DNA of 63,025 bases, the filler included, from Stramenopiles sp. TOSAG23-6 (taxonomy: Eukaryota): the NCBI GenBank assembly GCA_900128565.1. It is 11 parts of 11 records of this genome, joined end to end, with 100 filler letters (N's around TTAATTAATTAA, not from the genome) between each part and the next. Parts side by side here need not be neighbours in the genome. Positions count along the whole stretch, not along the records: positions 31,104 to 37,214 come from LT636783.1; 10 more parts are not named here. One strand, written 5' to 3'. A model generated the notes under the pieces. It had not been told where the DNA came from, ran no database searches, and saw nothing but the letters and a program-made list of their open reading frames with translations. Positions within the stretch are counted from its first letter, which is position 1; the number at the start of each line of letters is the position of its first letter. Shown here in pieces: positions 5 to 49,735 of this stretch. The position numbers and the translations under genes are program-made.

Positions 5-116
5 GTATGTTTTATTTTTTTGAAAATTTGAATTTTTTTTTTTTAGTTTTCATACGAAATTTTGTACCTAACAAAATGTTTTTGATTTTTTTTTGAAATA
101 TTTTTCCAAAATACAT
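5..116 (+). mobile_element. Introner-like intron, GT...AT
   Basis: GTATGTTTT...CATACGAAATTTTGTACCTAAC...TGAAATATTTTTCCAAAATACAT; upstream exon cut by the contig edge. Confidence 0.75.
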
Positions 117-3100
117 ACAATTTCATGTATACAACCAACATTAAACACTACTTTCAGTGATATACAATTGGTGAACCGGGTATCCAGACAACCAAAGATT
201 CCAGGACGTCATCGAAAACATGGAACAGATTTGGCAAGAATAATATATGTTTTTTTTTTTTTGCCCGGATACAAAAAAATTTGATGTGAAAAAATGGTAT
301 TTATCCCCCGTAGCTGATGATAGAATAGACGATTATCCCCAACAACAACAACAACAACAAATGCATGACGTATCATCTATGGATCATGCATCTTTGGGAC
401 ATCATATTCGAAATACTGATCCATATGCAAATAACTCTAATCGAAATGAATTAAATATATCTCAAGGTACGAAATTTGGTATGGATTTGAGTAGTCAAAG
501 ATTTGTATCACAACATGTTATGGACCCTAATGGTAGAAAGCGTTCTAATTCTGATTCATCTAATTCTTATCACGAGTATAAACAACATTGTGAAAATTTA
601 ATCACACAAGTTGAACGCCTCGATTCGTATGAGGAAAAAATGTTTGATTTTCAAGGTGTTAGAGCTCGTGTACGAAAAGGTGCATATAAAAAACAACATG
701 GATTTACTGATGCTATAAAACGTGTCATAGAAAAAGTACGAAAGAAAGAAGAAGAGCACCAGAACGAGAAGTTTTTTAGAGCCACTGAAGTGTTGGAGGA
801 ATTCAAAAAATTATTAAAGAATTTTCGTAGTGATATGAATCATTTAAAAAAACAGGGGTATAGTGATCAAATATATCCCATAAGTCAAAAAAAACGTATG
901 AGAATGTATGTTTTATATGAATTTCTAATTTAATTTTTGTTTCACACGAAATTTCATACTAAACGATTTTTTTTTTGAAATATTTTTTCACTATATATGA
1001 CGCATCATGGAGGAGATGTCATTCATGGTACTCATCAATATGGATATGAGGATACTCGTAGATGGTCTTCAACAAGCAGTTCGATTAACAATGATGCAAT
1101 CAGTAATAATTATTGTTATGAAGATGATAGGCATCAGTTTGAAAATTCATCAAACATGAATCGATACAATCAAGGAATTCGACCTTCGAGTGGACTTAAA
1201 ATTAAGATTGATCGTGCTCATGCTACAGACATTATTAACCTACAACACCACCCTTCATCCGCACGTTCAACGAGCAGTCGTCAAAGCTATGTGGATGAGA
1301 TCCAACAACAGCAGTTCGAACAACAACTACAACAACAACAATTACAACAACAACAACAACAACAACAACAACTATTACAACAACAACAACAACAGCAACA
1401 ACAACAATTCCAGCTTCAGCAACAACAACAACTAAAAGAAAAAATGCGTAGAGAGCAACAGCGGGTGTTACAACAACATAAACATTCATATGTAAATCAG
1501 AGAAAATCGGAGTCTCACAGAAGACCGACTGTTCGCAGTGCTCAACAAAACACGAATTCTTCGAATAACTCTAACAAAATGTATCAGAAAGTTCCTGTCG
1601 TATTATTACTCGGAGCTCCATGCTGTGGTAAAGGAACACAAGGTAAAATATTACAAAGTGCTCTGCGGTGGCATTATGTATCATGTGGTGAAGAATTGCG
1701 TAAAGCACGAGTCATCAGCGCGAATGCTCATGCGATAAAAAATTTGGCACGTCTAGAGAATGATCCAAATTCGAAATCAGAAGCTTATGTCTTGCGGTGT
1801 CGAATTATTGATGAATTATTAAAGCGTCAATGTCTTCGTGCTTGCTTAGTAGAAAGTAATTATGCTGGCTTAGTGATTGATGGGTGCCGAACTGTAGAAC
1901 AAGCGAGGGCAATGGAGCAGACACTATCATGTATCAAAGGTCTCCCACCCCTAAAAATTCAGATTGTTGTAACTTTGCATGTACCGAAGGAAATTGTAAA
2001 AGAAAGAACATTTGATCGATGGATACATGCTCCAAGTGGTCGTATTTACAGCAAAACCATACGACCTCCAAAAAACCCTGGGTTTGATGACGTCACCGGT
2101 GAACGTCTTACCCAAAGAAGTGACAATGATATGTGGGGAAAAAGACACGATTTTTATATAGAAAAACTTGAAGATGTACAAAATTATTTTGTAAAAAGAG
2201 GCGCCTTATTATTAAATGTTGATGCTACATCAACGCCATTGAATGTTCATTCTAAAGTTACCAATGTAATCAATCTAGGTTTATATAATCGGAAAATAAA
2301 ACTTTCTCTTCCGGGTGAAGCCGCTTTATGCAGTCGTCCTCGATTGGCTCATTCATCAGCTTTACCTTCTTGGAACAAAGCTAATGGTGGTGGATGTCTT
2401 ATTTTATGTCGCAAACCACTTGCTGATTTAATAATTAGAGCTTTAGCTGAAGTTGATGAAACTCCTTTAAAACTTTCTCAGAATACGAATATACCTACAA
2501 CAGAAGTGTCAACATCACTTAGGAAAACACTTGCCTGGCCTATTACGCAAAATCCTGAGCGACTGCGTGATTTTTTAGTAGATGTTGCTTCTAGTAACAA
2601 AAATATTTCTGTTGTGCAACAAACTGTTCAGCTTGGAGAATGTTTAGGTTTACAATCATTATTACGCGAATCAACTGATATGAGTGCTTATTTTGGTACT
2701 GTCACTGGATTAAAAACGTTTGAAAATGGTGTTCAATTTGGAAAAATTTCATATAACCCTAACCCAGATGAACCTTTAAATGAACCTTTAAATGAACCTT
2801 TAAATGAGCATTTAAATGAGCATTCAGGAATAGTGAAAGAAATAGAGTTTAGTATGGATGAAGTTCGAACACCTACCATTGATATCACAAAAGATATGGA
2901 GGTTTCGTTTAATATTGTATCTAGACAGGGGAAAGATTGGGCTGTTAACATTGAAATTTGGGATGAAAAAAAAGTGAATATTTTAGATGTTTTAGAAAAT
3001 GAAAATAATGAAATTTGGAATCTTGAAAAGACGAAAAATACAAAAAATGATACGATGGACAAATTAGATCCTAAAGATTTGGAATCGACGACGGTTACAA

Positions 3101-6122: not shown

Positions 6123-6222
6123 NNNNNNNNNNNNNNNNNNNNNNNNNNNNNNNNNNNNNNNNNNNNTTAATTAATTAANNNNNNNNNNNNNNNNNNNNNN
6201 NNNNNNNNNNNNNNNNNNNNNN
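6123..6222. other. Artificial contig spacer N44-TTAATTAATTAA-N44 (also 12345, 18566, 24786, 31004, 37215, 43406, 49581, 55754, 61919)
   Basis: Ten identical 100-nt linkers with stops in all six frames; contig lengths decrease monotonically. Confidence 0.98.
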
Positions 6223-6338
6223 TAACGTATGTTTTATTTTTTTGAAAATTTGAATTTTTTTTTTTTAGTTTTCATACGAAATTTTGTACCTAACAAAATG
6301 TTTTTGATTTTTTTTTGAAATATTTTTCCAAAATACAT

Positions 6339-9300: not shown

Positions 9301-10452
9301 TTGGAATCGACGACGGTTACAACAGATAGAAATTTGATTAATTCTGGCCATTCTTTTGATTTGACTACGAGACTCTCAGACAAACACGAATTACCAAAGA
9401 GTGATACGATGATGGTTAAAAATAATGTAGCTGATGAAACATGTACTCGTAACCCTAACCCTAATGATACAATTGGAGTTGAACAAAGTTCAATTAATAC
9501 GGAATTAACTACAGAAAATGAAAACCTTTCCGTAGATGGTGAAAATCACAAAAATAATAAGAACAATGAAACATTGAAATCAGTGATGGATGATTCTAAA
9601 ACAATAATGAATAAAGAGATAAAAAACAATGAAACACAAAATACTACAAAAACAATGAATGACGATACAAATCAAGAAATAACGACTAAAAAATTATTTG
9701 AGAATAATGGAAAAGATATCCAACCATCTTCAAATTGTGATGAAAAAACTGGAAAAACTGAAAAATCGAAAACGAATAAAGAAATATGGTGTGGTTTGCT
9801 CACATTTGGATTAAAATTACCTCAAGTTGTTCTCCCCAGTGGTGTCTTTCAAGCCGAAGATTCGGGACATTCTCTAAATTGCGCAGCGCGAGAATTGAAG
9901 AAACATCTTGGCATCGTTTTAGAATCAAAAATTTGGACTAGTACGACACAACAATATTTACGACAAAAACAATTAAATCCAAAATATGGTACATTAGAGT
10001 TATATAGAGATTCGGTTAGTCAACCCAAGCATCGCGTTTATTATATTTTATTACCAGAGGCAAAAGATGCTATTGTCAGTGTTTTGTATGATAAAGATGG
10101 CCGGCGTATCATTCGAATATCAACAAAACATCCAGCGTCTAGTTCAACAGTTACATCAACAAAAAGTCGATCAACAATAAAAAAAAATGAAAAACAGCCT
10201 AATTGGGTTGTTAAAACTGTGGACGGTGTGCACTTCTTTTATAATATGCATAAAAAAGTATTTGTCTCTCATACATTACCTCAAGAATGGATAGCAGCAG
10301 GATGGCAAATTGCTTGTCAGAGTGCTGGTACAATGTTGTATTGGTTTAATAAAATATCACAAGAGTCTGAATGGAGAGCAGGCGATAATGCAAAATCACC
10401 ACCAGGATTTGAACCGCACCCGGATCATAAAGAAGTGAAAATCCCAAATTAA
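6339..10452 (+). CDS. Duplicate copy of the adenylate-kinase multidomain gene
   Basis: Identical to 117-4230. Confidence 0.75.
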
Positions 10453-11064
10453 AAAACTTTTCTTAAATAGTAGGATTTGAACCGCCGCGTTCATAACAGA
10501 ATCAGAGGGAAGACATCTAGAGAGTAAGATTTGAATAAATAAGGATAATTTCTCTAGAAAAGTAGGACTTATTTTGGTTAGTTGAAGCCCTAATCCTATT
10601 TATTATCTCTGTAGGGTGATGTCGTGTTTGGTTTTATTTTGATTGGATTGTTGTCAAATCATATGTGAAGATGAAACATAATTTTATTCTTGTTTTGCTG
10701 GTGTAAAGAGTAAAAGCAGTTGTATGTTTTTATAAATATAGTATTAAGCTATTTCTTGTTTTTCACATTTTTTGAATTTTTTGATTACTATTATTTTTTT
10801 TTCTAAACAGGGCATTTGTTTTCGCTAAAGTTTCATTATTATTGTAGAGCTTGTATAGGCCCAGTAAGACATGAAAAATGTCGGTCATTGTATTGTAAAT
10901 GATCAACTTTATCATATATCTAGTATTGTTGAAGAAGTACAAGATAAGTGATTTCAACAAATTGCACTAAAAATGATCATAATGCTAATGTATAAAAATT
11001 CGAATATGATGATGGAAAATATATTTGTGTATTACGACTACATTTAATTGAATAATAAAAACAT

Positions 11065-12101
11065 CTAAACAATACCGCTCTCACCTGTAGTTAAATTCAC
11101 ATTTTCATATAACCCATTCAAATGTTCATTCATTTTCTCAAGTAACACGAAATCCTGTATTTCTTTTGGTTTTTCAATTTCTAATTTAATAGCTCCTTTT
11201 ATATTTCTGTATAAAGCTGCTTTTTGGTATGAGTTTCCTGCTGTTTGTGCTAATAATGCTGTAACTGTTGTATTCAATCTAAGAAGTTTTTGTATTTCTT
11301 TAATTTCTGAATTTAGAATTTGTCTTCTTTCATGAAACCAATTCCAAAAATTTGGACTTTGCACGAAATATAGTAAAAGTTGAAACCAAGTTGAATTTCG
11401 TCCAGTTCCACAAATAGCCGCAATATTTGGCATTTTCTGTGGATTTATTGTTTTTTTTTTCATATTTGATAAAAATAAATCAATTTCAAATTTAGGTATC
11501 AGATGTGTAGGATTTTCATACGGTCCAAAACCAGTCGATCCAAACCCTAACCCTAATGATATATTTTTACTGACATTTTGGGTATTTGAATGCATTGAAA
11601 AAAATGATGCTGAGCTACCAATACCTCCTGGAACGTACATTTTTTTATGTCGTGTTTTTTTGGAAATTTGAAAAAAGGGTTCAAATGGTAGTAATAATTC
11701 TGTAGTTAAATGTCTAAAATGTGATTTTAAAATTTTAGTATTAATCGAACAAAATGGATCTATGGACAAACCTGTTACAGATTGTACAGTAGTATCTGAA
11801 TGTATGGATGAGGATGATGACGTATTGCTTCTGGTACTTTTATTATTACTCATACTTATTGGATAGGAAAATGATGAATTTCTTTGTGATTTTTGTGATG
11901 GTATTTTATCTTGTAGATTTCGTGATTGTTTTGAAAATGATGAACTTATTCTTTTCCGTATATTTCGTGTTGTTGTAGGTTTTTTTAATAATTGTTTCAT
12001 AATAGTTTTATAAGGTGAAACTACAGGCAAATTACGACATATAAGATATGCTCTATATGAATGTAATTTATTATCTGATTGTGAACTACCTGCAACAGCC
12101 C
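11065..12101 (-). CDS. Duplicate copy of the DENND6-like last exon
   Basis: Identical to 4843-5879. Confidence 0.65.
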
Positions 12102-12570
12102 AAATAATGTGAAAAAATATGTTCCCATTCAAAATTTGTTACATTCAAGATTTTGAAAGGTTTTGAAAGGAAAACATGGAAATTGAAAAAATATATACAT
12201 TTGAACAATACATTTGAACAATATATTTGAACAATACATTTGAACAATATATTTGAACAATAGATTTGAACAATACATTTGAACAATATATTTGAACAAT
12301 ACATTTGAACAATACATTTGAACAATACATTTGAACAATACATTNNNNNNNNNNNNNNNNNNNNNNNNNNNNNNNNNNNNNNNNNNNNTTAATTAATTAA
12401 NNNNNNNNNNNNNNNNNNNNNNNNNNNNNNNNNNNNNNNNNNNNAGGTACAAAATTTCGTACCTAACAAAAAAAATTTCAAAAAAATTTTCAAAAAAATT
12501 TTCAAAAAAAAAAAAAAAAAAATCTAAAATCTAAAAAAGTTATAATTTTTTTTCTTTTTTTACATTATAG

Positions 12571-13609
12571 CACGTCAGGAAAAGGGTATGTCGAGGTTCG
12601 GTTCTCAGGGGTGAGTAAAGGTATTATGGTAGAGAGGATTATATCCATATTAGAACGTGGAAGTAGTAAAAAAATTGACTTTATTTTGTGCGCTGGTGAT
12701 GACAGTTCAGATGAAACAATGTACGTAACCCTAACCCTAAAAAAAAACAAATGAATAATAATTTCTGTACAACATTTGTATAAAAATTTTGTACCTAACC
12801 AAGAAGAAGAGAAAAAAAAAACTATATATATTTGTATTATACATGTTTGAAGCCTTACTAAGACGTCGTAAAAATTGTACATCGGTGTTACCACCTGGTT
12901 TTAAACAATATGTATGTTTTATTTTTTTTTAACAAAAAAAATCGATTTTTTTTTTTTTTTTTTTTTAAAAATTTTTTTACCTAAAAAATTTTTTTTGATT
13001 TTTTTTTACGGTAGGAAAGAAGCCAAGTGCAGCAGAGTTCTTTGTTGACGATTCTGATGATGTAGGTACGTGTTCAGTTTTCAAAATTTAATTTTTTTTT
13101 TCATACGAAATTTTGTACCTAACGTTTTTTTACGAAAAAAAAAAAATATTTTTTCACAATATTTGATCGCTTCTTTTAGCATTGACTAAAATGAATACAA
13201 CAATGTCTCGTAGTTTATCAATGAATGATTCAAGGACACTTCAGACAAAGTGGAATCGAACAACGAATGGTGTAGGTTTTCATTAATTCATAATTTCATT
13301 TTTTTTTTTTGCTATGAAATTTTTTTTTTTTTTTTTTGTTACTATGAATTTTTTTTTTCTAAACAATACTAAATTTTTTTGACTTTTTTCACAATACATG
13401 ATTCGAAATTGTTTCGATTCCGCTATGGTTCACTTACCGACTGTAGTGATATGTCGAATAATAACCCTAACCCTAATGATGTTCCAGTATCTTTGTTAAA
13501 TGATAAGTCTTTAAAAAGTGAACCAACAATTGATGAATTTCTGGACGAAATTGGTACAAATGTCAGTGAAAGTAGTGCAGATGATGATGAAGGTGGTTTA
13601 TGGATGTAG
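12571..13609 (+). CDS. Trehalose-6-phosphate synthase/phosphatase, C-terminal TPP (HAD) part, 5 exons
   Basis: GKGYVEVRFSGVSKG, DFILCAGDDSSDETM|F, TVGKKPSAAEFFVDD. Exons 12571-12720, 12845-12911, 13008-13065, 13165-13271, 13400-13609. Largely missed by the ORF track. Confidence 0.85.
12721..12844 (+). mobile_element. Introner-like intron, GT...AT, 124 nt
   Basis: AT|GTACGT(AACCCT)2...TTATACAT|G restores the HAD motif GDDxSDExMF. Confidence 0.9.
13066..13164 (+). mobile_element. Introner-like intron, probably GT...TT, 99 nt
   Basis: GTACGT...TCACAATATTT| gives DDV-GSLLLAL; an in-frame AG 15 nt further downstream is an alternative. Confidence 0.65.
13272..13399 (+). mobile_element. Introner-like intron, GT...AT, 128 nt
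   Basis: GTAGGT...TCACAATACAT| phase-0 join RTTNG-DSKLFR. Confidence 0.8.
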
Positions 13610-16977: not shown

Positions 16978-18435
16978 ATGAAGTTTACTGCCCAACATGG
17001 TTGCGTTATTACATGTTTGTTTGCAGTTTTTGTATATAGTGGATGCATTTTCGGATGGTCTTCGGTAGAACAAATGTTAATTCAGTTAAATGTCTTTGAC
17101 GAGAAAAAATGTATTTCTTTAAAAACCTCAGATATGTGTGAGAAACCACAATACAGCTGTACATGGAATAAAGATTCTAGTATTTGCTTAGCACCAAGAC
17201 AATCATCTAATTTAGCTTTAATCTTTGCCGTTGCTGCCTTCTGTCAAAGTGGTCCTGCTTTACCTGCTGGAATGTTTCTTGACTATTTTGGACCAAAAAC
17301 ATTGATTTTGATAGCTGGTTGTTTATCAGCAAGTGGTTTCTGCATCGTTGGTTATGCTTCTTCACTTGAGTCTTTATATATGTTTGTTGCTGGGTTTAGT
17401 GCAATTGCAATAGGTGGAATGAGTTTCTTCTTTTGTTGTTTCATAGCATGCAGTTTTTTTCCAAAACAACAAAATGGATTACTCAGTACTACATCTGTAC
17501 TATTTGATGCAAGTACTATTACTTTTGTTATAGTCGCTCTCACAAAACCAAACACCAAAGATTCATTCTATACTGCAATGTTTTTTATGGCAGGTTTAGC
17601 ATTATCTTTATCCATAATAGGTTGTATTTGTTTTGGTCAATCCAATATTCCATGGAAAATTCCATCAAAAAAAAAAAAAAAAAAAAAAACTTTACTAGAC
17701 AATGATGGCTTAATAAGTCATCCTTCCTCTCTTGTCGATATTAATGAAGATGTTGAATGTTCAGTATATGTATCTCCAAATGCTTCTAATAGTACTCCAT
17801 ATGCTTCTTCTGAATATTCACTTGGACATCATCCTCCAAAAATTGACAGTATCTCAATAAGTACACTACCTGTACGTCAACCCTAACCCTAACCCTAACC
17901 CTACTAGTGTCACCTCAATTTTGAATTTTTTTTTTTTTTTTGGTATGAAATTTTGTACCTAACAAAAAATTAAAAATATATATATTTTTTCACAACACTT
18001 GTACGTCAACAGATACAATCAGCAGAATATATATTTATTCTTTTCTTTACTATGATTCATATGACACATAGTAATGTTTTTCTCGGTACTTTTGCGACAC
18101 AATTCAAACAAGTAGGAGATCATGTAAGTGTATCAATGTATCATTATGAATACTATATTATTTTTTTTTTTTTCGAATATTTTTTTTTTCGAATATTTTT
18201 TTTAAATTTTTTTTTCGTATGAAAATTTGTACCTAACGAAAAAAAAAAAAAAAATCAAAAAAAAAATATATTTTTTCATATTAAATAATGGAATGTATAC
18301 AAAAATATGTGCATTACTCATTCCTGCTGGTGTTATTTTTATTCCTTTTATTGAGAGAATTCTGTCACGCTTAGGGTTCGGTGTTGCCATTACAATCGTA
18401 AATATTTTAGCAATATTGATTCCGCTACTACTTGT
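16978..18435 (+). CDS. MFS transporter (SLC43/FMP42-like), 3'-partial
   Basis: SGCIFGWSS, GMFLDYFGPK, STTSVLFDAS and multiple TM helices. Exons 16978-17871, 18001-18123, 18287-18435. Confidence 0.8.
17872..18000 (+). mobile_element. Introner-like intron, probably GT...TT, with telomeric repeats and an 11-bp flanking direct repeat
   Basis: TGTACGTCAAC at both junctions, (AACCCT)4 next to the donor, family core motif present. Confidence 0.75.
18124..18286 (+). mobile_element. Introner-like intron, GT...AT, about 163 nt
   Basis: AT|GTAAGT...GTACCTAAC...TTCATATTAAAT| joins GDH to NGMYTKIC; no AG between branch site and exon. Confidence 0.75.
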
Positions 18436-21269: not shown

Positions 21270-21589
21270 TAATTTCATAGGCAACCAGCGTCAAGGAAGA
21301 AATTCTTCGGGTCTCTACCAAAATAGAATGAATATATGTTTCCATCATTTTTTAATTTAATTTTTTTTTCATAGGAAATTTTGTACCTAACAAAAAAAAT
21401 TCAAAAATTCAAAATGTTTGAAATATTTTTACAAAATAAATGGATGTAAAAGAAAATTCAAACCACCTGGATCTATAGCGAATAATAGGGAACAATGTTC
21501 TCGTCAAACAACACGAAATCGAAATGCTGGACATAAACGTAACGCTCCTAAGCAAGGTTTATCTGGAAAAAAAGGCAATGTAATCTAAA
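19951..21589 (+). CDS. Asn-rich protein, possible fidgetin-like-1 N-terminal region, truncated at the fold-back
   Basis: FQTASNVL (FxxA) and, after intron 21334-21441, KRKFKPP; no AAA domain in the window. Confidence 0.45.
21334..21441 (+). mobile_element. Introner-like intron, probably AT...AT, 108 nt
   Basis: ATATGT in place of GTATGT; core motif and ACAAAATAAAT end align with the family; in-frame join MN-GCKRKFKPP. Confidence 0.65.
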
Positions 21590-21861: not shown

Positions 21862-22181
21862 TTTAGATTACATTGCCTTTTTTTCCAGATAAACCTTGCT
21901 TAGGAGCGTTACGTTTATGTCCAGCATTTCGATTTCGTGTTGTTTGACGAGAACATTGTTCCCTATTATTCGCTATAGATCCAGGTGGTTTGAATTTTCT
22001 TTTACATCCATTTATTTTGTAAAAATATTTCAAACATTTTGAATTTTTGAATTTTTTTTGTTAGGTACAAAATTTCCTATGAAAAAAAAATTAAATTAAA
22101 AAATGATGGAAACATATATTCATTCTATTTTGGTAGAGACCCGAAGAATTTCTTCCTTGACGCTGGTTGCCTATGAAATTA

Positions 22182-27036: not shown

Positions 27037-28628
27037 ATGGCAAGAATGTATGATAGTTTAGGCTTTTGTTTTATCCACATTGATGGTCTGGAAAATATTC
27101 CAGTATCTTCGCTTGAATTCTTAGAGTCTTTTAAAGATGGTATTTTTGTCGACGTTCGTTGGGGAAATGCCTCTTCTGAAAATGAGCAAACTACTCTTAG
27201 TCATTGTAGTTGTGGGCACATAAAATGGGATACGGATATTATACTTGACAAACCAACACAACAGCAAGATCCAAAAAGTATTCGGTTTAGTCTATGGGCA
27301 TATCGTGAAGGCTTTAAAGCCTCTGAATGTTTAGCATTTCACGAGTTTATTTTCCCTGATAAACCGAAAGTTTCAGTACAATACGATTTACGACACACAA
27401 TGGTACTTTTAAAAAATAGTGCCATAGTAGGCAACTTTACTGCTGTTTGTACTCTATTTACCACTCGAGAGATTGCGAAAATGGTATGTACAACTTCAAT
27501 TTTTGAAAGGGAGACAATACAAAAAAGCAAAAATGAAGTCGAAATAGAAACAAATTTACTGAATAGCGTACAGTCCGACGACGCTAAAGCCACAAAAAAT
27601 CTTATACAAAATATCAGAGAATTTAAAAATGAAAAAAGAGTGAATAACCTAATGTTGGATTATTCAGTAAAACATCCAGATGAACCAAGGCTATTCGAAG
27701 ACTACGAGTTTCTTGATTCCACGCAACTTGACGATTTTCGAAAAAAAATGAGCAGAAAAGATTTTATTCATCAAATTATGTATGTTTTACTTTTTTTCAA
27801 ATTCGATTTTTTTTTGTACGCAATTTTGTACCTAACGAGTTTTTTTTTGAAATATTTTTCTACAATACATAGGAACTGGAAAAATGAGAGAAAAAATGGG
27901 TTTAAAATTTAGAAGGAATAAATATCCTGAAGATTCGTGAACTTCAAAAGGATAAACAGAAGCAAAGTGAATTTGACAATATGTCAGACACTATAAACAC
28001 ATTGCCAATGAAATTTTTACCTAACAATATGTCAATGACAACAACACGGAATTTTTCTGACAAAGAGGATAAACATGAAAATATAAAACATACATTATAC
28101 GATCCACCACCACTGCTTAATCCAAGTGACATCGTTCGCAAAGAGGATAAACGTGAAAATATAAAACATACATTATACGATCCACCACCACTGCTTAATT
28201 CAAGTGACATCGATTCTTCATTAGATAAGAAAAGTAGTCGTATTCAAAGAAAATCTGATAGTATTTATAGAAATCAAATGTTTGTTCTACAAGACGAATT
28301 TCAGTATTCAAGGCGTCCTAAAAAACTAACTCTAACAGATGCAACAGATAAAAGTAAAGCAAATGCTGCTTTGATGCTAAAGAATACGAACGAAAAGTTG
28401 AATACATATAAAAGTGAGATTTTCCCACAGAATCTTTTTGAAAATCAACAAATAGACTGTATCAAAGCCCTTGGTCGCATTGGCAATCATACTAATAGTG
28501 CTAACAAAACTTTCTCTTGGAAACCTTCAAAAATCCTTCGAGAAAAACTTGTGAAACTATCCGCGACTGAATTAAAGATTGTCCAGAATCTGATGAACGA
28601 AAATTTGAAAGAAAGCAAAACCTCATAA
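27037..28628 (+). CDS. Hypothetical protein with N-terminal C2-like domain
   Basis: IFVDVRWG...IKWDTDIIL...IRFSLW; intron 27780-27870; needs a 1-nt frameshift near 27904 to join ORF 27981-28628. Confidence 0.5.
27780..27870 (+). mobile_element. Introner-like intron, GT...AT, 91 nt
   Basis: AT|GTATGT...GTACCTAAC...TCTACAATACAT|; near-consensus copy; an AG lies 2 nt downstream. Confidence 0.75.
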
Positions 28629-31157: not shown

Positions 31158-34100
31158 GATACAATAAAATATCTGAGGAAATTTGGTCAAGCTACTGAGT
31201 ATGAAACACTACTTACAGAAAATGAATACGATAATTCTTTTTGTAGAAAGCTTTTACAAAATGAATACGATAATTCTTTTTGTAGAAAGCTTTTACAAAA
31301 CGGAGAACAATGTGGTCTTCTTCCTCAACATATAATTATGTTATCTGATTTCATCTCTGGTGTTTTCGTTTCTCATAGAACTCAGCGAAATATGTTTGTT
31401 TTATTTTTTTTCAAATTCGAAATTTTTTTCGTACGAAATTTTGTACCTAACGATATTTTTTTTGAAATATTTTTCCAAAATACATGCAGTCTATGATTAT
31501 CAAATGTATTTGTTTGTATGCTTCACCTAGAGTCCTCGGTATCGAATCATTAGGTTTAGTATTGCGCCAAATAGATGTAAGTATACTTTGGCAAAATAGA
31601 ATTCAACTTAAGACATGGTTTCTTTCCTGTGAAAGCACACCTCGAATTATTTTTGATATTCGTTCTGTTGTAAATGGATTTTGTGAAAGTACAAATCCAA
31701 ATCAATCAAATGACAATTTTTCATTTTCGGAGTTTTCAGGGATTTTTGGTAATTTCAAAATATCTGATTATATTCTTGAAAATTGTGAGAAAAATGTATT
31801 TTCTAGAAAAGAAGATGAAACTGCAATGCGCCAAGCATTTCATTTGCAAAAGACAAGAGATAAAGATTGTGGTACGACAATGATATCTTATGTATTTGCA
31901 TTACTTTTGATCATTGAAGATGAACATATAGTAGAAAATGTAAATATTGATCAAGAGTTTGTTATATTTGATTTATTGGGTGATATTGGATATGTTTTAT
32001 CAAATTTGTATAGGAGTTCTTACATAAGTAAACCAAAAGCAGCTCGTTGTCTCTCATTATTCAATGCAATATTTACATGTATGATGAAAAATGATGATTG
32101 TGTAAGTAAAGACATGAAATATCAAAGTTTATTGACTAAAGTACAAACTATCTTTATCAATTCCTGTGATAGCGTCATGTCTTATTGTACTCTTGAACTT
32201 GAAAGAAAATTGCCTGTCGTGCCAACATCTGAAGTAGATGTAGATTATCAGTGGCGTATACTGTGCTTGTCAGCAATAAAATGTATGACTAAAGTGTACC
32301 CATCAGATCCTCGTGTTTTACCAATTGCTGATTGCTTTTTGAAAAAGGCACTCTCAATTCTTCGTTCCTCAAATACATCAAACACTTCCGTACACAAAAC
32401 GATATCAAATACATGTCAAAATTTACCATTAGCAGTTGATATAATTCGTGCAGTACAAGACATAGAGTCTGTAGCCATGTGCAGAAGTAATTTTTGTTCT
32501 GCTGACGTCAGATTAATTATGGATAGCAAATGTGATATATTTTCATGTGCAACTGAACTAGATTTGACTAGGATTCCTTCAAAATTAACATCTATACATT
32601 TTTTTAAAAAATGGAAGATTTTAAGTATCATTATGGAAAGCTCAAATACTACGACTTTTACTACTTTAAATGGTGTCCTCGATTGTGTGATAAGTGTGAC
32701 TGAAGCAATTCAGACTTGTGGTTCAAAACCTGATATAGTCATATCTATATTGAAATGTGTTTCATCATCATTATTATATCTTTATGATAGTTCATTGAAT
32801 AGTGAAATGTCTATGGACCAAAGATCTATACAGTTAACAACAATAGTTTATAACTCATGGAAAGCTGTATTTGACTGCGAACGATGTACAACTGAAATAA
32901 TACAGACATATATAGAATGTATTTTTCAACCATTTTTGTTTCTCATTCCAAGTGCTAGAAAGGTATTACTTGATGAATTTAAAAGAATTACAAATGTTTG
33001 TGGCCCGAAAAGTAATCGAGGATCGGGAGATCGACCATTACTACTCAGATCATTAGTTGCTCAATGTTGTAAAGTTTGGTCGTTTTCGTATCGGCATTTA
33101 GAAACAGCTAATGAATTTCTGGATCCATTGATAAACATTTGTTTAACGAATGAATTCTCAAAGGATAATTCTCATTCGAAGACAGAAAAAATACCAAAAA
33201 TGGAAATGGCTCGTTGTGTTGTTTTGGTTTTTCTTGATCAATTGATGAACCGATGTTCAAATGACGTACATAACAAATGTAGTAAAAAATTTGCAAAAAC
33301 TGCTTCTTTATTTCTGGATTCAATGATATTGAAATTACTAGACGTAAACTTCCAGCCAAAGCATATTTTTGAAGCGTCAAAACTTCGCCCTGGTAATCCT
33401 CAACAAATGGAAAAACTTCGATGTTGGCAGACATTATGTATGTTATCTAAACATTTGCCTGATGTTTCAAATGTTGGCAAAGAATTGGATAATCATAGCA
33501 ATGTACGTCTAGATTTTATTCAAAATGTTCATAATCGATTATGGAGATGTGTTTTACAGAATAATGATTCAAATGTACGACATCAAATTGAAATGTTTGC
33601 TTGTATAGCTACTGTCCGAACTCCTCAAATTGTTCTTGATGATATCTTACTCTTGGAATTATCTGATACAAATCAACCTGTAGGATGTTTGTGTTCATAT
33701 GTAATTGTTGGTTATGTAGCTGTAAAATATCTTGATAAAGAGCATCCACTTAGAGTAATATTTATACCAAATTTTGTTAAGAAACTGATCCCTCTTTTGT
33801 CTTGTGTTGATGGGATTTTACGTACCTTATCCCAAGCAGTTGTTTCATACGTATTAAATGCCACAAAAGCTACCTTTGATGATTTTGTTTGTGAAGAACT
33901 TTTAGGATATTTCAAAGCAAATAAAAAAGCATCAAGTATGATTGAAAGACAATTGAAAACGCTTCAAGCCTATGATCCTAAATGTTGTTTTAGTCTCAGT
34001 AGACTTTTGTCAGTTGAAGATCCCTATACAAGTGAAGGTGATATCATTCCCATTTCACTTATTGAACGGATAAAATCGACAATGTTAAATACATTTATAG

Positions 34101-35144
34101 TATTTGATCAACTGGAAAAGGAAAATATTGTACATTCAGAAATTCGAAGTAAAACTATACAAAATGACATATACAATTATTCTAAACAAATCCTTATTGA
34201 TCATCCTATTCAAAACAAAAAAACAAACGAAATAAAAACTGAATTAATTGATGTTTTTACACAAAGAAAAATTGTTCCTTGGGAAGTGATGGAATCATAT
34301 AATAATGATTTGATAAAAAAATCAATATGTATGTTTTATTTTTGTTTCAATTTCGAATTTATTTTTCGTACTAAATTTTTTACCTAACGAATGTTTTTTT
34401 GAAATATTTTTCCAAAATACATATACTGCAAAAAGAAAACAAAAGATAATAATAGTTGCCAGTTTGATAGATAAAATTCCAAATCTTGCTGGATTAACAC
34501 GTACATGTGAAATATTTCAAGCGGAACAATTGATATTACCAAACATGAAGTGCACGAAATCAAAAGGTTTTAAGCAGATTTCTGCTTCAGCCGATACCTG
34601 GATAAATGTACGTTTTCATTTCATTTCAAATTTATTTTTTTTGATACGAAATTTTGTACCTAAACAAAAAAAAAAAAAAAAAAAAGATTGAAATTCGATG
34701 TTTGTTTTTGTTTTAATTGTAATATTATAATTCATTTGAATTCATTTCAAATTTATTTTTTTTTCCGTAAAACTTTTTTTGTTTTTGTTTTTGTACCTAA
34801 CAAAAAAAATAGAATGAAAAATATTTTTCACAATATAAACCAAAGCTATTCCTCCTGGTGTTCAACTTCACAATTTTTTAAATAAAAAACGGAGTGAAGG
34901 ATACAATATTATTGGCTTGGAACAGACTTCAACTAGTCAATGTATTACAGAATATAAATTTCCTGAACAGACAGTATTAATTCTAGGCATGGAAGGTAAG
35001 GGCGTTCCTGCAGAGTATCTAAAAAATGTTGATGCATGTATTGAAATTCCTCAGTTAGGAATCATTCGATCTTTAAATGTTCATGTAAGTGGCGCAATAC
35101 TTTTGTGGGAATACACTAGGCAACGTATCGTAAATTCCGATTAA
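31158..35144 (+). CDS. TARBP1: tRNA (guanosine-18 2'-O)-methyltransferase, SpoU family, 5'-partial
   Basis: IIVASLIDKIPNLAGLTRTCE, IGLEQT, LILGMEGKGVP, IEIPQLGIIRSLNVHVSGA. Exons 31158-31393, 31486-34328, 34423-34607, 34839-35144. Confidence 0.9.
31394..31485 (+). mobile_element. Introner-like intron, GT...AT, 92 nt
   Basis: AT|GTTTGT...CCAAAATACAT|G; the nearest AG is out of phase. Confidence 0.85.
34329..34422 (+). mobile_element. Introner-like intron, GT...AT, 94 nt
   Basis: Restores frame and keeps KIIIVASLIDK; the first in-phase AG would delete part of the conserved strand. Confidence 0.9.
34608..34838 (+). mobile_element. Introner-like intron with duplicated core, GT...AA, 231 nt
   Basis: Gives W-I-N-T-K-A-I-P-P, the same spacing as TARBP1 W-L-P-L-V-E-V-K-P as I recall it. 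Confidence 0.8.
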
Positions 35145-35689: not shown

Positions 35690-36478
35690 ATGGAATCCCC
35701 AACAGTGTCACTAGATTTATGCGTGGGGAAGCCTGCACCATATTATGTGCCTGATATAGAAAACTTGAGTAATCCTGACCTTATTTTTATGGCTCGTTTG
35801 GCAGAGCAGTGTGACCGTTACGAAGATATGATTTCATATATGAATCGCGTAGCAGAATCTAAGGGAACGTTGGACGTAGAAGAGCGTAATTTATTTTCTG
35901 TTGCGTATAAAAATGTAGCAGGTGGTCAACGTGCATCATGGCGTATATTGACTTCCTTATTGGATGCGAGTGAGAAAGACTGGGAGGTTGGTGCGTTATT
36001 AAGCTACAAAACATCTGTAGGAGACGAATTGGATAAAGTATGTGACCGTGTAACATCTTTACTTCAAAGTGTGCTTATTCCCTCTGCAGTAATGCCGGAG
36101 GAAAAACTTTTTTATTTTAAAATGTGTGCCGACTATAAGCGTTACCAATCCGAAATCGTAAAGAGTACTTCAGAGAGAGGCATTGAAATAATATCATCAG
36201 CAAGAAAATTTTATGAAGAAGCAAAATCAGTTTCAGTTGAGTCAAAGTTACAACCTACTTCCCCCATGGTCTTGGGGCTGGCATTAAATATGTCTGTATT
36301 TCAGTATGAAATCATCAATGACGCAGAAGAAGCTTGTCGAATAGCAAGAGAAAGTTTCGACGCGGCTGTGTCGGAATTAGATACTCTCGAAGAGTGTTCG
36401 TACAAAGATGCAACCCTAATCATGCAACTATTACGTGATAATTTAACTTTATGGACTGAAGAACAACAAAGTATATGA
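35690..36478 (+). CDS. 14-3-3 protein
   Basis: ARLAEQCDRYEDM, ERNLFSVAYKN, SYKDATLIMQLLRDNLTLWT; intronless. Confidence 0.97.
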   Translation: MESPTVSLDLCVGKPAPYYVPDIENLSNPDLIFMARLAEQCDRYEDMISYMNRVAESKGTLDVEERNLFSVAYKNVAGGQRASWRILTSLLDASEKDWEVGALLSYKTSVGDELDKVCDRVTSLLQSVLIPSAVMPEEKLFYFKMCADYKRYQSEIVKSTSERGIEIISSARKFYEEAKSVSVESKLQPTSPMVLGLALNMSVFQYEIINDAEEACRIARESFDAAVSELDTLEECSYKDATLIMQLLRDNLTLWTEEQQSI

Positions 36479-43624: not shown

Positions 43625-44505
43625 AAAGCTACCCGATGTAATAAACTCAAGTTTTTGGATGTTTTACATATTTGTAAAAACGAACGTAATACACCATTTT
43701 TTTCAAGTTGTTTGGAAATGTTTTCATCTCTTGAAATATTTGCAAGTATTGTGAAAAAATATTTTTTTTTTGTTTTTTGTTAGGTACGAAATTTACTATG
43801 AAAAAAAAATTGAAAAAAAAAAAAAAAATGGTCAAGTCGACAACGTACAATAATCCAAACACAATTACAACGAATTGAGTCTACACTTTTTACTTCCTCC
43901 TTATTTTTACTGTTTGCCGAGAGTGCGTTTTTTCCTAATAAAAATACTAGTCTTTTTAATAAATTATCAAATGTCGAAGTCAATAACCCTAACCCTAATT
44001 GTTTCAAGTGATGGATATCAATATTTTTTTTATGTAAAATATTGACAAGAGCAATTGTAGCTACCTCAATGGTATTAATATCTTTACTAAATGATAAAAC
44101 AGATGTTATAGTATCTACAGTATTACATTTTGTGTCTAGTGGACAAAGAGAATGAACAAACTGAACAGAATTATCATTTGTTTTTTTCTCTCCCATCTCA
44201 CTCAAAGAATTAATAGAACTTTTACCTATGATTGATAAAGAAGAAACGGTATTAAAACCTTCTACAGTAGACAATGACATACAATTAGAGCACGCGGATA
44301 TCATACTAAGAGCACCAACACTTTGTAAAATTGAATCTTTATGATTTTCTTGTGTGATACATTTCTGAATATTTCCATTGAGAAACTCAATTCCTCCAAT
44401 ATTTATAAAATATTCCAGGTTTTGTTTTTGTACTGGAGACTTCTCTAAAGCAAATGTTTGAGCTGCTATTGAGATAGAAAGAAATATATCTTGAGCAGTT
44501 TTCAT
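43625..44505 (-). CDS. Armadillo-repeat protein, 3'-partial
   Basis: FINIGGIEFL, ATIALVNI, CVWII|ANIS; exons 44505-43849 and 43743-43625. Confidence 0.65.
43744..43848 (-). mobile_element. Introner-like intron, GT...TT, 105 nt
   Basis: TT|GTACGT...TCACAATACTT|GCA restores the ARM pattern WxIxNI; in-frame stop inside; downstream AGs out of phase. Confidence 0.88.
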
Positions 44506-44957: not shown

Positions 44958-45890
44958 ATGAACCGTCATACAGGTTCTATCAAGAAACGATCAGTAAAGA
45001 ATCAAATACGTGGCATTGAGCGACTTTTACGCCAAGCCGAGAAGAAGAATTTACCGAAACAAAAAATTGCGGAAATGGAAGGTCGATTGAAGTCGCTACG
45101 CAAGAAAAAGATACATCTCAAGACATGTGAGAAAGAAAAGAAGNATGTGTTGCGCTACAAGAAAATCATGTTTATTGAAAAGAAGAAAATTCTTCGTATG
45201 ATTAAAAAGGCAAGACGACAAAATAAGTCTTCTGCAGTTATTGCTTCACTTGAGGCTGATTTACAATATATAGTTCATTTTCCCAAGACAGAAAAATACA
45301 TTTCACTCTTTGTTAAGTCTGACGATGCAGAAAAACTTGCCAGATCGACCAAAAAGCTAAAAGAACTTCGAGAAATTGCGGCAACGAATGCAAAATCTGC
45401 TATACAGCATGAGGAGAATGCGGACGGTTTTGTCAAGAAAAAGAAAACTAAAAAAGGCAAACGTGAACGCGCTGAGGCCCGTGCTGCAATGGCAATGACT
45501 ACAAATACCATTAATATCCAAAGTAATAATGAAATAGTGTCCAATTCGAGTGATATTGAATCATCCGAAGGAGAAGATGAGTCGTCAGAAAATAAAGTCA
45601 TTGACTCATCCGAAGCAGAAGATGAGTCGTCAGAAGATAAAGTCATAGATTCGTTTTTCTTAGATGAAGAGGCTGAACTAAAATCTGAAAGAAAAGAAGC
45701 GGAACGAATACAAGCTAAACTCAAAGCATCCAAGGGTAAATTACATCCTACAAGACGTGAAAAAGCAATATTGAAACGAAAAAATGAAGAGACAGAAAAA
45801 AAAAGCAAAAAGAAGAAAAGAAAGATTGCAAAGATTGATAGATATCATAATTCTAGTGTTTTTATAGATGCAAATAATAATAAAGATTGA
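44958..45890 (+). CDS. EFG1: rRNA-processing protein Efg1
   Basis: KNQIRGIERLL, RYKKIMFIEKKK, DLQYIVHFPKTEKYISLF. Confidence 0.88.
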   Translation: MNRHTGSIKKRSVKNQIRGIERLLRQAEKKNLPKQKIAEMEGRLKSLRKKKIHLKTCEKEKKXVLRYKKIMFIEKKKILRMIKKARRQNKSSAVIASLEADLQYIVHFPKTEKYISLFVKSDDAEKLARSTKKLKELREIAATNAKSAIQHEENADGFVKKKKTKKGKRERAEARAAMAMTTNTINIQSNNEIVSNSSDIESSEGEDESSENKVIDSSEAEDESSEDKVIDSFFLDEEAELKSERKEAERIQAKLKASKGKLHPTRREKAILKRKNEETEKKSKKKKRKIAKIDRYHNSSVFIDANNNKD

Positions 45891-46050
45891 TAGATATCAT
45901 AATTCTAGTGTTTTTATAGATGCAAATAGTAATAAATATAGATAGATATCATAATTTTAGTGTTTTTATAGATGCAAATAGTAATAAAGATTGATAGATA
46001 TCATAATTCTAGTGTTTTTATAGATGCAAATAGTAATAAATATAGATAGA
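45831..46050. repeat. About 4 tandem copies of a 52-bp unit spanning the EFG1 stop codon
   Basis: GATAGATATCATAATTCTAGTGTTTTTATAGATGCAAATA repeated at 52-bp intervals. Confidence 0.9.
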
Positions 46051-46226
46051 TAGATGAAGAAATGTAGAAGATATTTGTTTTGTAACTTTTGTTTTGTACG
46101 TTGCCTACATGTAAACCTTGATGTAACATATTGATGATGTCTACCATTTTTCCAAAATTAAAAATATTTTCTAAAAATTACTTTTATACAAAAATAGTTC
46201 ATTTATATATTAGGGTTAGGGTTAAA

Positions 46227-48908: not shown

Positions 48909-49162
48909 TTAAATATCAATTGTATCGTTGACCTCAAACGTTATTAAATATCAATAGTATCGTTGTCCTCAAATTAAATATCAATAGTATCGTTGTCCTC
49001 AAATTAAATATTAGTAGTATCGTTGTCCTCAAACGTTATTAAATATTAGTAGTATCGTTGACCTCAAACGTTATTAAATATCAATAGTATCGTTGTCCTC
49101 AAACGTTATACATTTCACGGACGAACTTAAATATCAATAGCATCGTTGTCCTCAAACGTTAT
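48909..49162. repeat. Six 30-35-bp tandem copies of the 3' end of the adjacent gene plus the genic copy
   Basis: TTAAATATCAATAGTATCGTTGTCCTCAAA(CGTTA) at 48909, 48944, 48974, 49004, 49039, 49074 and 49127. Confidence 0.9.
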
Positions 49163-49513: not shown

Positions 49514-49551
<38 letters not shown>

Positions 49552-49565
49552 GGGGGGGGGGGGGG
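49514..49565. repeat. (GA)n microsatellite followed by a poly-G run
   Basis: Directly visible near the contig end. Confidence 0.9.
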
Positions 49566-49735
49566 CTGAATTTTTTTTTTNNNNNNNNNNNNNNNNNNNN
49601 NNNNNNNNNNNNNNNNNNNNNNNNTTAATTAATTAANNNNNNNNNNNNNNNNNNNNNNNNNNNNNNNNNNNNNNNNNNNNGTACGAAATTTTGTACCTAA
49701 CGAAAAACAATTTGAAATATTTTTCCAAAATACAT

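Follow-up and report, generated by a model that had tools for sequence, protein, structure and literature searches.

Most introns in a 63,025-nucleotide (nt) stretch of DNA from Stramenopiles sp. TOSAG23-6 (assembly GCA_900128565.1; hereafter, the window) are copies of a single repeat family of approximately 90-230 nt, inserted in unrelated genes; an initial annotation of the window had likened the introns to introner transposons. Judging from reading frames and homologous proteins, these copies are very probably genuine repeated introns that end without AG and are cut two bases past a conserved AYAC motif. The best reading of the family is a miniature inverted-repeat transposable element (MITE)-like introner with a non-AG 3' splice site in the genome of a marine stramenopile of the MAST-3 group. 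We also lean towards the view that the introns derive from transposons and that their 3' splice site is the downstream copy of a 2- to 3-bp target-site duplication (TSD). The structure is illustrated by intron P, which lies in a gene for a TARBP1/SpoU-type tRNA methyltransferase and comprises the following features:

34329..34422 (+): intron P, GT...AT, 94 nt
34329-34342 (+): 5' block of intron P
34373-34388 (+): branch-site block of intron P
34401-34420 (+): 3' block of intron P
34327-34328 and 34421-34422 (+): direct repeat AT, at the exon end and at the intron end

Across positions 34327-34422, an exon ending in AT is followed by GTATGTTTTATTTTT..AAATTTTTTACCTAAC..GAAATATTTTTCCAAAATAC, a second AT and the next exon, which is the order of exon AT, element, AT and exon that had been annotated there. 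The position two bases past the motif (motif+2) is the sole acceptor offset that joins the flanking open reading frames (ORFs) of 954 and 89 codons, and the exon 3' of the intron aligns with the methyltransferase domain of human TARBP1 (2ha8_A, residues 24-79).

Verification of the 3' ends by reading frame and homology

The window consists of 11 contigs, each of approximately 6.1 kb, which follow one another in order of length with linkers between them (N44-TTAATTAATTAA-N44; 6123-6222, then every ~6.2 kb). Contig 2 (6223-12344) is an exact copy of contig 1 (1-6122), and contig 4 (18666-24785) is a perfect palindrome, being its own reverse complement. Counts taken from the raw window are therefore inflated, and the 23 complete non-AG introns of the initial annotation correspond to 20 unique ones. 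Our evidence base is thus approximately 56 kb of unique sequence with 18 frame-verified introns.

In the frame test, the donor GT and the end of the AYAC motif were located in 17 unique complete copies, and the acceptor offset that joins the flanking long ORFs was determined. Motif+2 (or that plus multiples of three) was the sole joining offset in all 17, which fixes the exact length removed, and intron G2, which passed by hand, brings the number of verified introns to 18. The other two unique introns are candidate K, which failed, and intron A, whose upstream exon of 4 nt places it outside the test.

Three junctions are backed at the codon level, those of introns AD and Q by homologues and that of AB by a domain pattern. 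The product spliced across AD, HSDYGSITLLTT followed by DGTVGLE, is colinear without gaps with homologues such as HSDYGTITLLSTDGVSGLE, and the pattern HSDYG.[ILV]TLL..DG..GLE is found in 53 of the 56 homologue matches of this protein. These 53 homologues, which are 40-48% identical and many of which were called on metagenome contigs, are uninterrupted at the position of AD, and AG is absent from this intron between the branch-site block and the exon. The exons flanking Q align nearly colinearly to residues 24-79 and 88-178 of 2ha8_A, with a single extra residue in the loop relative to the human protein. The product of AB (..DLNH joined to DKRLSFTEF..) completes, in translation, a 12-residue loop that we take to be that of an EF-hand (PROSITE PS00018). 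Intron D splits an ATG codon as AT/G, which gives the M in ..GDDSSDET-M-FEAL; the exon 5' of D aligns to the trehalose-6-phosphate phosphatases 5dxl_A and 5dx9_A and ends at ..GDDxTDE, and the continuation DE-x-MF is presumably the one to be expected there in such an enzyme. For the TT/TT intron with its donor at 43848 (-), a homologue search with longer proteins found none, and this junction is placed by frame and by family analogy. The agreement between the frames and the codon-level junctions argues that the introns are real and end without AG.

The remaining complete copies are listed below, where paired dinucleotides give the last two bases of the upstream exon and of the intron, in this order.

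31394..31485 (+): intron O, donor GTTTGT, AT/AT; same gene as P; motif+2 leads into at least 300 open codons
34608..34838 (+): intron Q, GTACGT...CACAATAT+AA, exon end AT (one-base mismatch); same gene as P
27780..27870 (+): intron M, AT/AT; the downstream open frame has just 23 codons (gene end near)
906..998 (+): intron B, GTATGT...CACTATAT+AT, AT/AT; exact duplicate at 7128-7220
5..116 (+): intron A, exon end AC versus AT; upstream exon cut to 4 nt by the contig start; duplicate at 6227-6338
12721..12844 (+): intron D, AT/AT; trehalose-6-phosphate phosphatase gene; CCCTAA repeats after the donor
13066..13164 (+): intron F, same gene as D; exon AG versus TT, without a repeat; motif+2 leads into 40 open codons, the other offsets into 5 and 8
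13273..13399 (+): intron G2, same gene as D; donor GTAGGTTTTCATT, ...TTTTTCACAATAC+AT; exon GT versus AT
17872..18000 (+): intron H, CT/TT; gene for a transporter resembling the major facilitator superfamily (MFS); CCCTAA repeats after the donor
18124..18286 (+): intron I, GTAAGT...TTCATATTAAAT, AT/AT; degenerate 3' motif, with another in-frame AT end 3 nt downstream
61520..61623 (+): intron T, GTACGA...CACAGTAC+AT, AT/AT
59076..59220 (-): intron V, AT/AT
58783..58877 (-): intron W, AA/AA; counted once
58514..58642 (-): intron X, TT/TT
57919..58103 (-): intron Y, ..TTTTTTACAACAC+AG, exon end AA; family member with canonical GT-AG ends, cut at the usual offset
57048..57149 (-): intron AA, ..CACAATAT+AT, AT/AT
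56044..56150 (-): intron AB, AT/AT; product ..FDSIDLNH, then DKRLSFTEF..
55066..55155 (-): intron AD, CT/AT; 2-oxoglutarate and Fe(II)-dependent (2OG-Fe(II)) oxygenase gene
43744..43848 (-): intron AE, GTACGT...CACAATAC+TT, TT/TT
21338..21441 (+): candidate intron K, on the palindromic contig; AT/AT by the rule of the initial annotation; mirror copy on the minus strand, with its branch-site block at 22060-22075

G2 has the family-like donor GTAGGT, and a second in-frame solution, with its donor at 13277 and its end at 13397, was found by hand. For the MFS-like gene containing H, the Pfam MFS_1 score lies below the cutoff. Intron Q has two branch-site blocks (34649 and 34786) and two copies of CATTTCATTTCAAATTTATTTTTTTT, and looks like two family copies that are arranged in tandem, or one nested in the other, and spliced as one intron.

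Register of the splice sites

A perfect 2-nt repeat makes the registers GT...NN and NN...AC yield identical mRNA, which is the case in 13 of the 18 introns. Both boundaries could hence be placed two bases upstream, giving introns of the form NN-GTATG...ATAC (mostly AT-AC) with a fixed 3' AC and a variable 5' dinucleotide; AT-AC is indeed a known boundary pair. The introns in which the two registers differ speak against this. In F, moving both cuts two bases upstream creates an in-frame stop (GTT TGA) before the 40-codon exon. The residue at the AD junction is T under GT...AT and N under CT...AC, and the 53 pattern-matching homologues carry T in 42 cases, N in 6, I in 4 and A in 1. Intron Y has its AG exactly at motif+2. 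The upstream register would, moreover, have 3' ends that vary (ATAT in B, F, Q and AA; ACAC in H), and we know of no precedent for a donor cut two bases upstream of GTATGT. The upstream register thus appears very unlikely. The evidence from F, AD and Y argues that the donor is the canonical GT and that the acceptor lies two bases past AYAC, whether or not there is a repeat, and this combination of a canonical donor with a non-AG acceptor is the one we favour.

The initial annotation had stated that splicing removes the element plus one copy of the TSD whatever its sequence. The removal of two extra bases agrees with all 18 frames. 'Whatever' was an overstatement: the 3' dinucleotides are limited to AT, TT and AA, plus the AG of intron Y, with AT dominating and no other dinucleotide containing G or C.

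Conserved blocks and splice signals of the family

Three blocks characterize the family: a 5' block (GTAYGTTTTATTTT; donor form GTAYGT(T)TTT), a branch-site block ((TTTTCGTACG)AAATTTTGTACCTAAC; core CTAAC) and a 3' block (TTTTYCAMAATAC, written in extended form as (G)AAATATTTTTYCAMAATAC). In the window, duplicated contigs included, the branch motif GTACCTAAC occurs 29 times against 0.20 expected and the 3' motif TTTTYCAMAATAY occurs 16 times against 0.35 expected. A multiple alignment was made of 16 copies. Copies from different genes share 85-93% identity over 55-96 nt, spacers without obvious signal included, and introns O and P are 89.6% identical over 96 nt. Two subfamilies can be distinguished by their 3' ends, CCAAAATAC and TTCACAATAY. 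All 18 verified donors begin with GT, and deviation occurs only at the 3' end; approximately three-quarters of the introns seen in the window lack an AG end. The branch-site block lies 33-56 nt upstream of the 3' cut, and this variation indicates that the position of the cut does not depend on how far away the branch site is.

An alternative is that this family is removed by a transformed minor spliceosome of the U12 type, comparable to that of Physarum. In its favour are the length and near-invariance of the 5' and branch motifs, the closeness of GTATGTTTT to RTATC[C/T]TTT of Physarum, from which it departs mainly at +5, and the resemblance of ACCTAAC to TCCTTAAC. However, GTATGT and CTAAC are exact major-type (yeast-like) splice signals, and an exact match to a U12 consensus is lacking at both the 5' end and the branch site: GTAYGTTT and GTACCTAAC are found here, not RTATCCTT and a TTCCTTRAY near the 3' end. 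The branch-site block is also farther from the 3' end than is usual for U12-type introns. Splicing by a minor spliceosome is therefore quite unlikely in our estimation. A small nuclear RNA search with Rfam detected no RNA family in the window.

Several minor features accompany these blocks. Short perfect palindromes (AATTCGAATT-like, TTTCGTACGAAA and GTAC) lie between the donor and the branch site, for example, at 34350-34372 and 31412-31435; the interior palindromes of the element give no measurable RNA stability. Telomere-like CCCTAA repeats directly follow a GTACGT or GTACCT donor in three family introns (12721-12745 and 17872-17915 on the plus strand and 58103-58070 on the minus strand), and the repeat also occurs once in a coding exon (13460-13477, +), as AACCCTAACCCTAAT, where it is translated as NPNPN. 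These repeats could be a subfamily mark or chimeras from amplification.

Direct repeat between exon end and intron end

The last two bases of the intron are identical to the last two bases of the upstream exon in 13 of the 18 verified unique introns. Ten of these are AT/AT (donors at 906, 12721, 18124, 27780, 31394, 34329 and 61520 on the plus strand and 59220, 57149 and 56150 on the minus strand), and the three others are TT/TT at 58642 (-) and 43848 (-) and AA/AA at 58877 (-), all three of which had been reported in the initial annotation and now have verified frames. One-base mismatches are present in four introns (CT/TT at 17872, AT/AA at 34608, CT/AT at 55155 (-) and GT/AT at 13273) and a two-base mismatch in one (AG/TT at 13066). 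The association was previously described as 15 matches among 23 introns, with seven of the eight non-matches differing by one base; it holds, with counts corrected to 13 of 18 and four of five, respectively, after the removal of A, K and three duplicates.

When the 3' dinucleotides were shuffled among the 17 scripted introns (G2 left out), the 13 observed matches compared with a mean of 7.7 (p = 0.00055) and the three non-AT matches with 0.59 (p = 0.006). The co-variation that had been noticed between exon ends and intron ends thus exceeds what composition would produce. With G2 included (n = 18), the expectation becomes 7.9 matches, a figure obtained by arithmetic and not from a new permutation. 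Moreover, a 3' AT follows 10 of the 11 AT exon ends versus 2 of the 7 non-AT exon ends (one-sided hypergeometric ~0.013, by hand). The TT/TT and AA/AA pairs are direct and not inverted or complementary, which argues for duplication rather than pairing of the ends.

The base at exon position +1 is G in 12 of the 18 introns (e.g. 31486, 56043, 55065 and 43743), which may reflect a 3-bp ATG duplication, a target preference or a context signal of the acceptor. Duplications of 2 and 3 bp are indistinguishable here because the donor G is invariant. Three other ways of placing the repeat were tried and rejected. Taking TG as the repeat gives 10 matches in 17 introns versus 13 in the AT register; TA as the TSD, with an element TGTTTT...CCAAAA, leaves the element without inverted ends; and a Helitron-like insertion into A/T without a TSD leaves TT/TT and AA/AA unexplained.

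An explanation without transposon or TSD is that the introns carry long and rigid splice signals (exon AT, GTATGTTTT...GTACCTAAC...YCAMAATAC AT, G) read by a diverged spliceosome, with AT as the consensus at both ends. The predominance of AT/AT among the matches (10 of 13) would follow from this, as would the AT found after the 3' motif in all five introns whose 5' end is lost at a contig end (24954, 31155, 37360, 49733 and 37135 (-)); the frequent G at exon +1 resembles a consensus as well, and the terminal inverted repeats (TIRs) are weak. However, the pairing of non-AT exon ends with the same non-AT intron ends, and the scarcity of a 3' AT after non-AT exon ends, are not what a consensus at both ends would give. 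In addition, the likeness among copies runs through signal-free spacers, contigs break in the repeat, and intron density is high, whereas the lineages known to have rigid signals are intron-poor. Rigid signals alone are therefore an unlikely explanation.

Evidence on the origin of the family

A young repeat family in unrelated genes, a direct repeat that varies from locus to locus and inverted ends speak for a transposon, as far as sequence can tell. An antisense partial copy (described below) and the position of AD, which is uninterrupted in the 53 pattern-matching, distant homologues, point the same way. The inverted ends GTAT(G)TTTT...AAAATAC described in the initial annotation are present, in this form only in the CCAAAATAC subfamily; the CACAATAY subfamily has GTAT/ATAC. 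From these features, we infer a short non-autonomous MITE-like introner that would bear its own 5' splice site (GTAYGT(T)TTT), branch site (GTACCTAAC) and 3' terminal block (TTTTYCAMAATAC). Transposing at the DNA level, it would insert into exons by a 2-bp (possibly 3-bp) staggered cut, with a preference for AT, often followed by G, and leave one target copy on each side. The major spliceosome would then cut at the GT of the element and two bases past its AYAC end, after the downstream target copy, a mode of 3' site recognition by which the mRNA would regain its pre-insertion sequence despite an intron that ends in AT, TT or AA rather than AG. In a more far-reaching version, the MAST-3 spliceosome ignores AG and cuts at a fixed two-base offset from AYAC, so that the element inserts scarlessly in almost any A/T-rich dinucleotide and has turned most introns into GT-AT, GT-TT or GT-AA introns; this version seems doubtful to us.

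Several observations weigh against a transposon origin with a 2-bp TSD. The signal of the direct repeat is real but thin: it comes from a small sample, and AT/AT, which accounts for 10 of the 13 matches, is the consensus at exon end and intron end alike; the locus-specific part of the signal is carried by just the three non-AT matches, and 5 of the 18 introns lack an exact repeat. The duplication could be of 3 bp (ATG), in which case the target would supply the donor G. Candidate K is in frame only at motif+0 (GT...AA) or -3, motif+2 being out of frame. With its restricted set of 3' dinucleotides, the acceptor is relaxed, not sequence-blind. The TIR is just 4-8 nt long with a 1-nt bulge, and its 5' arm doubles as a splice signal. 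It leaves no trace in RNA folding: the folds of 10 introns have z values of -1.74 to +1.15 relative to shuffles, 13-187 of 200 shuffles fold at least as well, and the intron ends pair, by 4-6 bp, in 5 of the 10 minimum-energy folds. No transposase family was detected in the 20 large ORFs scanned out of 39 listed (>=180 amino acids), in keeping with the initial annotation, which had also seen none in the window. No family copy was found clearly outside a gene in the window, and a single antisense partial copy was identified (57617-57779). A 25-base pattern spanning two blocks had no match in metagenome contigs. The 16-base branch block alone matched at least 118 metagenome loci and 28 viral loci, with a single match per locus among the matches listed, and a second family block (donor or 3' motif) was present in none of these 146 loci; we treated them as chance matches. 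A hairpin in the RNA that joins the intron ends was considered as well and is ruled out by the folds, which are no better than those of shuffles.

The antisense partial copy is contained in a minus-strand GT-AG intron (57617-57779, -), which holds an antisense branch-site block and uses as its donor GTACGTG, a family-like 3' end (..CACGTAC) in reverse complement. This arrangement suggests that the element can land in either orientation. All of the verified copies are in genes and in sense orientation.

The family may also have spread via RNA, by the reverse splicing and reverse transcription that have been suggested for introner-like elements of fungi, or by repair-mediated duplication, and not by a cut-and-paste transposase. 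The minimal TIR, the sense orientation of the verified copies in genes and the failure to find a transposase in the ORFs scanned are in line with such a route, and some introner families lack TSDs and TIRs (PMC9860276). In reverse splicing, however, a fixed intron end is carried along, and the last two bases would not copy the target as they do in 13 of the 18 introns; the antisense partial copy inside an opposite-strand intron is a further point against it. Spread without a transposase is thus highly improbable in our judgement, and insertion of a transposon at the DNA level remains the origin towards which we lean.

Comparison with known systems

An introner is a MITE-like element that brings one splice site with it, the second being provided by the TSD; such elements are established in Micromonas, Aureococcus and numerous further eukaryotes, most of them aquatic (PMC11282704, PMC9860276, PMC12130899). 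The present family resembles the introners of Micromonas pusilla and Aureococcus anophagefferens in being short introns present in many near-identical copies in unrelated genes, without coding capacity and with the mRNA restored (PMC11282704, PMC9860276), and those hosts, too, are marine picoeukaryotes, stramenopiles among them. In contrast, the algal introners have GY-AG ends and a TSD of 3-9 bp that supplies the AG, whereas the duplication here is of 2 bp (perhaps 3), the acceptor is AT, TT or AA, and the TIR is 4-8 nt.

The closest parallels for non-AG ends come from other lineages. In the tunicate Fritillaria borealis, non-canonical introns form the majority; they are species-specific, bear TIR and TSD, and have non-AG ends that the host spliceosome tolerates; a copy of the TSD (exonic TAC) is mirrored by the non-canonical 3' end (reviewed in PMC11282704), and divergent U2AF paralogues bind the odd intron ends (PMC13326754). 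Those introns are non-canonical at both ends (AG-AC and AG-AT), whereas the family described here, in a stramenopile protist, has a strong canonical donor and branch site and deviates at the 3' dinucleotide only; all 18 donors are GT, and the Fritillaria combination of an AG 5' end and a non-AG 3' end was not observed among them. Introns of Amoebophrya (PMC7789003) and of euglenids (PMC11282704) likewise have repeats over their boundaries and inverted repeats near their ends, and more than 60% of introns are non-canonical there. In those systems, the direct repeats are 3-5 nt, inverted repeats of 8-20 nt form a hairpin joining the ends, and the terminal dinucleotides are not fixed; in Amoebophrya, U1 was not detectable (PMC7789003). 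Here, unlike in that type, the donor is a perfect GTATGT, and none of the 10 introns folded had a stable stem joining the splice sites. In Physarum polycephalum, a transposable element with short inverted ends and a TA duplication has been proposed to have spread U12-type introns (bioRxiv 10.1101/2020.10.12.336362). That proposal shares with ours a 2-bp repeat outside short inverted ends, the ends doubling as splice signals, and GT-AT, AT-AT and AT-AA introns occur there. However, in the Physarum introns the 5' motifs are of the U12 type and the branch site is 10-12 nt away from the 3' end, in contrast to the major-type motifs and the spacing of 33-56 nt in the present family.

The absence of U12-type motifs and of the hairpin of the Amoebophrya and euglenid type places the family outside those groups, and we therefore file it as an introner. 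The family follows the same logic as the systems above. A GTATGT donor, a CTAAC branch site, a non-AG acceptor and a 2-bp repeat, with no hairpin and in a stramenopile, form a combination that sets it apart from them. A literature search returned no report linking MAST-3, Nanomonadea or Incisomonas to introners or non-canonical introns among the matches listed. The main texts of MAST genome papers (PMC5778133, PMC12614181 and a 2026 single-cell preprint) are silent on such introns in the parts covered, although their supplements might mention them; in the portion of PMC5778133 covered, introns are touched on only in the methods and unusual splice sites are unmentioned.

If our interpretation is correct, a free-living marine stramenopile joins Fritillaria and Amoebophrya as an organism in which most introns are off the GT-AG rule. 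The family would then offer a simple natural system for the study of non-AG 3' site choice, because freedom is confined to the acceptor dinucleotide while donor and branch site follow the textbook, and it would bear on the joint evolution of transposon-driven intron gain and loosened splice-site specificity. If AG is no longer read, the recognition of 3' splice sites (U2AF or step-2 factors) may have been re-engineered independently of the tunicate case.

Consequences for public gene models

By comparison with the sequence, two genes of this assembly have faulty public models. One encodes a 14-3-3 protein (ORF at 35690-36475, +), which is identical to a MAST-3 single-cell protein in EukProt save for a gap of 28 residues in that model. 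The ORF is uninterrupted, and the public model thus contains a false 28-residue intron; the next named 14-3-3 matches are stramenopile, animal and fungal proteins. In the 2OG-Fe(II) oxygenase gene (54604-55704, -), the public model P0121, in which canonical sites were forced, loses the conserved SITLLTTDGTV. Models that are restricted to canonical sites may bias the gene counts of MAST-3 genomes and what is inferred from them about function.

Assembly features of the window

The last 55 nt of contig 10 (61864-61918) are an exact inverted copy of 58833-58887, that is, of the 5' half of intron W plus 10 nt of exon, which makes this contig end a chimera. The duplicate, palindromic and inverted stretches look like chimeras from whole-genome amplification, which fits an origin in an uncultured marine stramenopile and an assembly of amplified single cells. 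The GC content is approximately 24-38%. Of 19 contig ends, 11 lie inside, or no more than 4 nt from, a copy of the repeat family, and four contigs begin at nearly the same base of the branch-site block, as is typical of a high-copy, near-identical repeat in short-read assembly.

The presence of chimeras raises the possibility that the copies themselves are amplification or assembly artefacts or, alternatively, that they are removed at the DNA level like the internal eliminated sequences of ciliates, in which a 2-bp repeat flanks the insert and one copy is kept. The latter would suit the shortness and AT-richness of the inserts, their location in coding sequence, their 2-bp direct repeat and their short inverted ends. 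Every copy, however, has the full set of spliceosomal signals in sense orientation, the copies are located on many independent contigs with different flanks, and nuclear dualism is, to our knowledge, not known in stramenopiles. Both possibilities are extremely improbable, and splicing of genuine introns is retained as the explanation.

At the end of contig 8 (~49520-49580), a (GA)n run is followed by approximately 17 G, probably an artefact of sequencing or amplification. Tandem arrays are also present. A satellite with a unit of 103-106 nt, in seven copies, occupies most of contig 11 (62233-62976), and a 13-nt repeat, ATACATTTGAACA, is present in 11.5 copies at the end of contig 1 (5973-6122, equivalent to 12195-12344). 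Further arrays have units of 52 and 35 nt (45830-46052 and 48909-49162, respectively).

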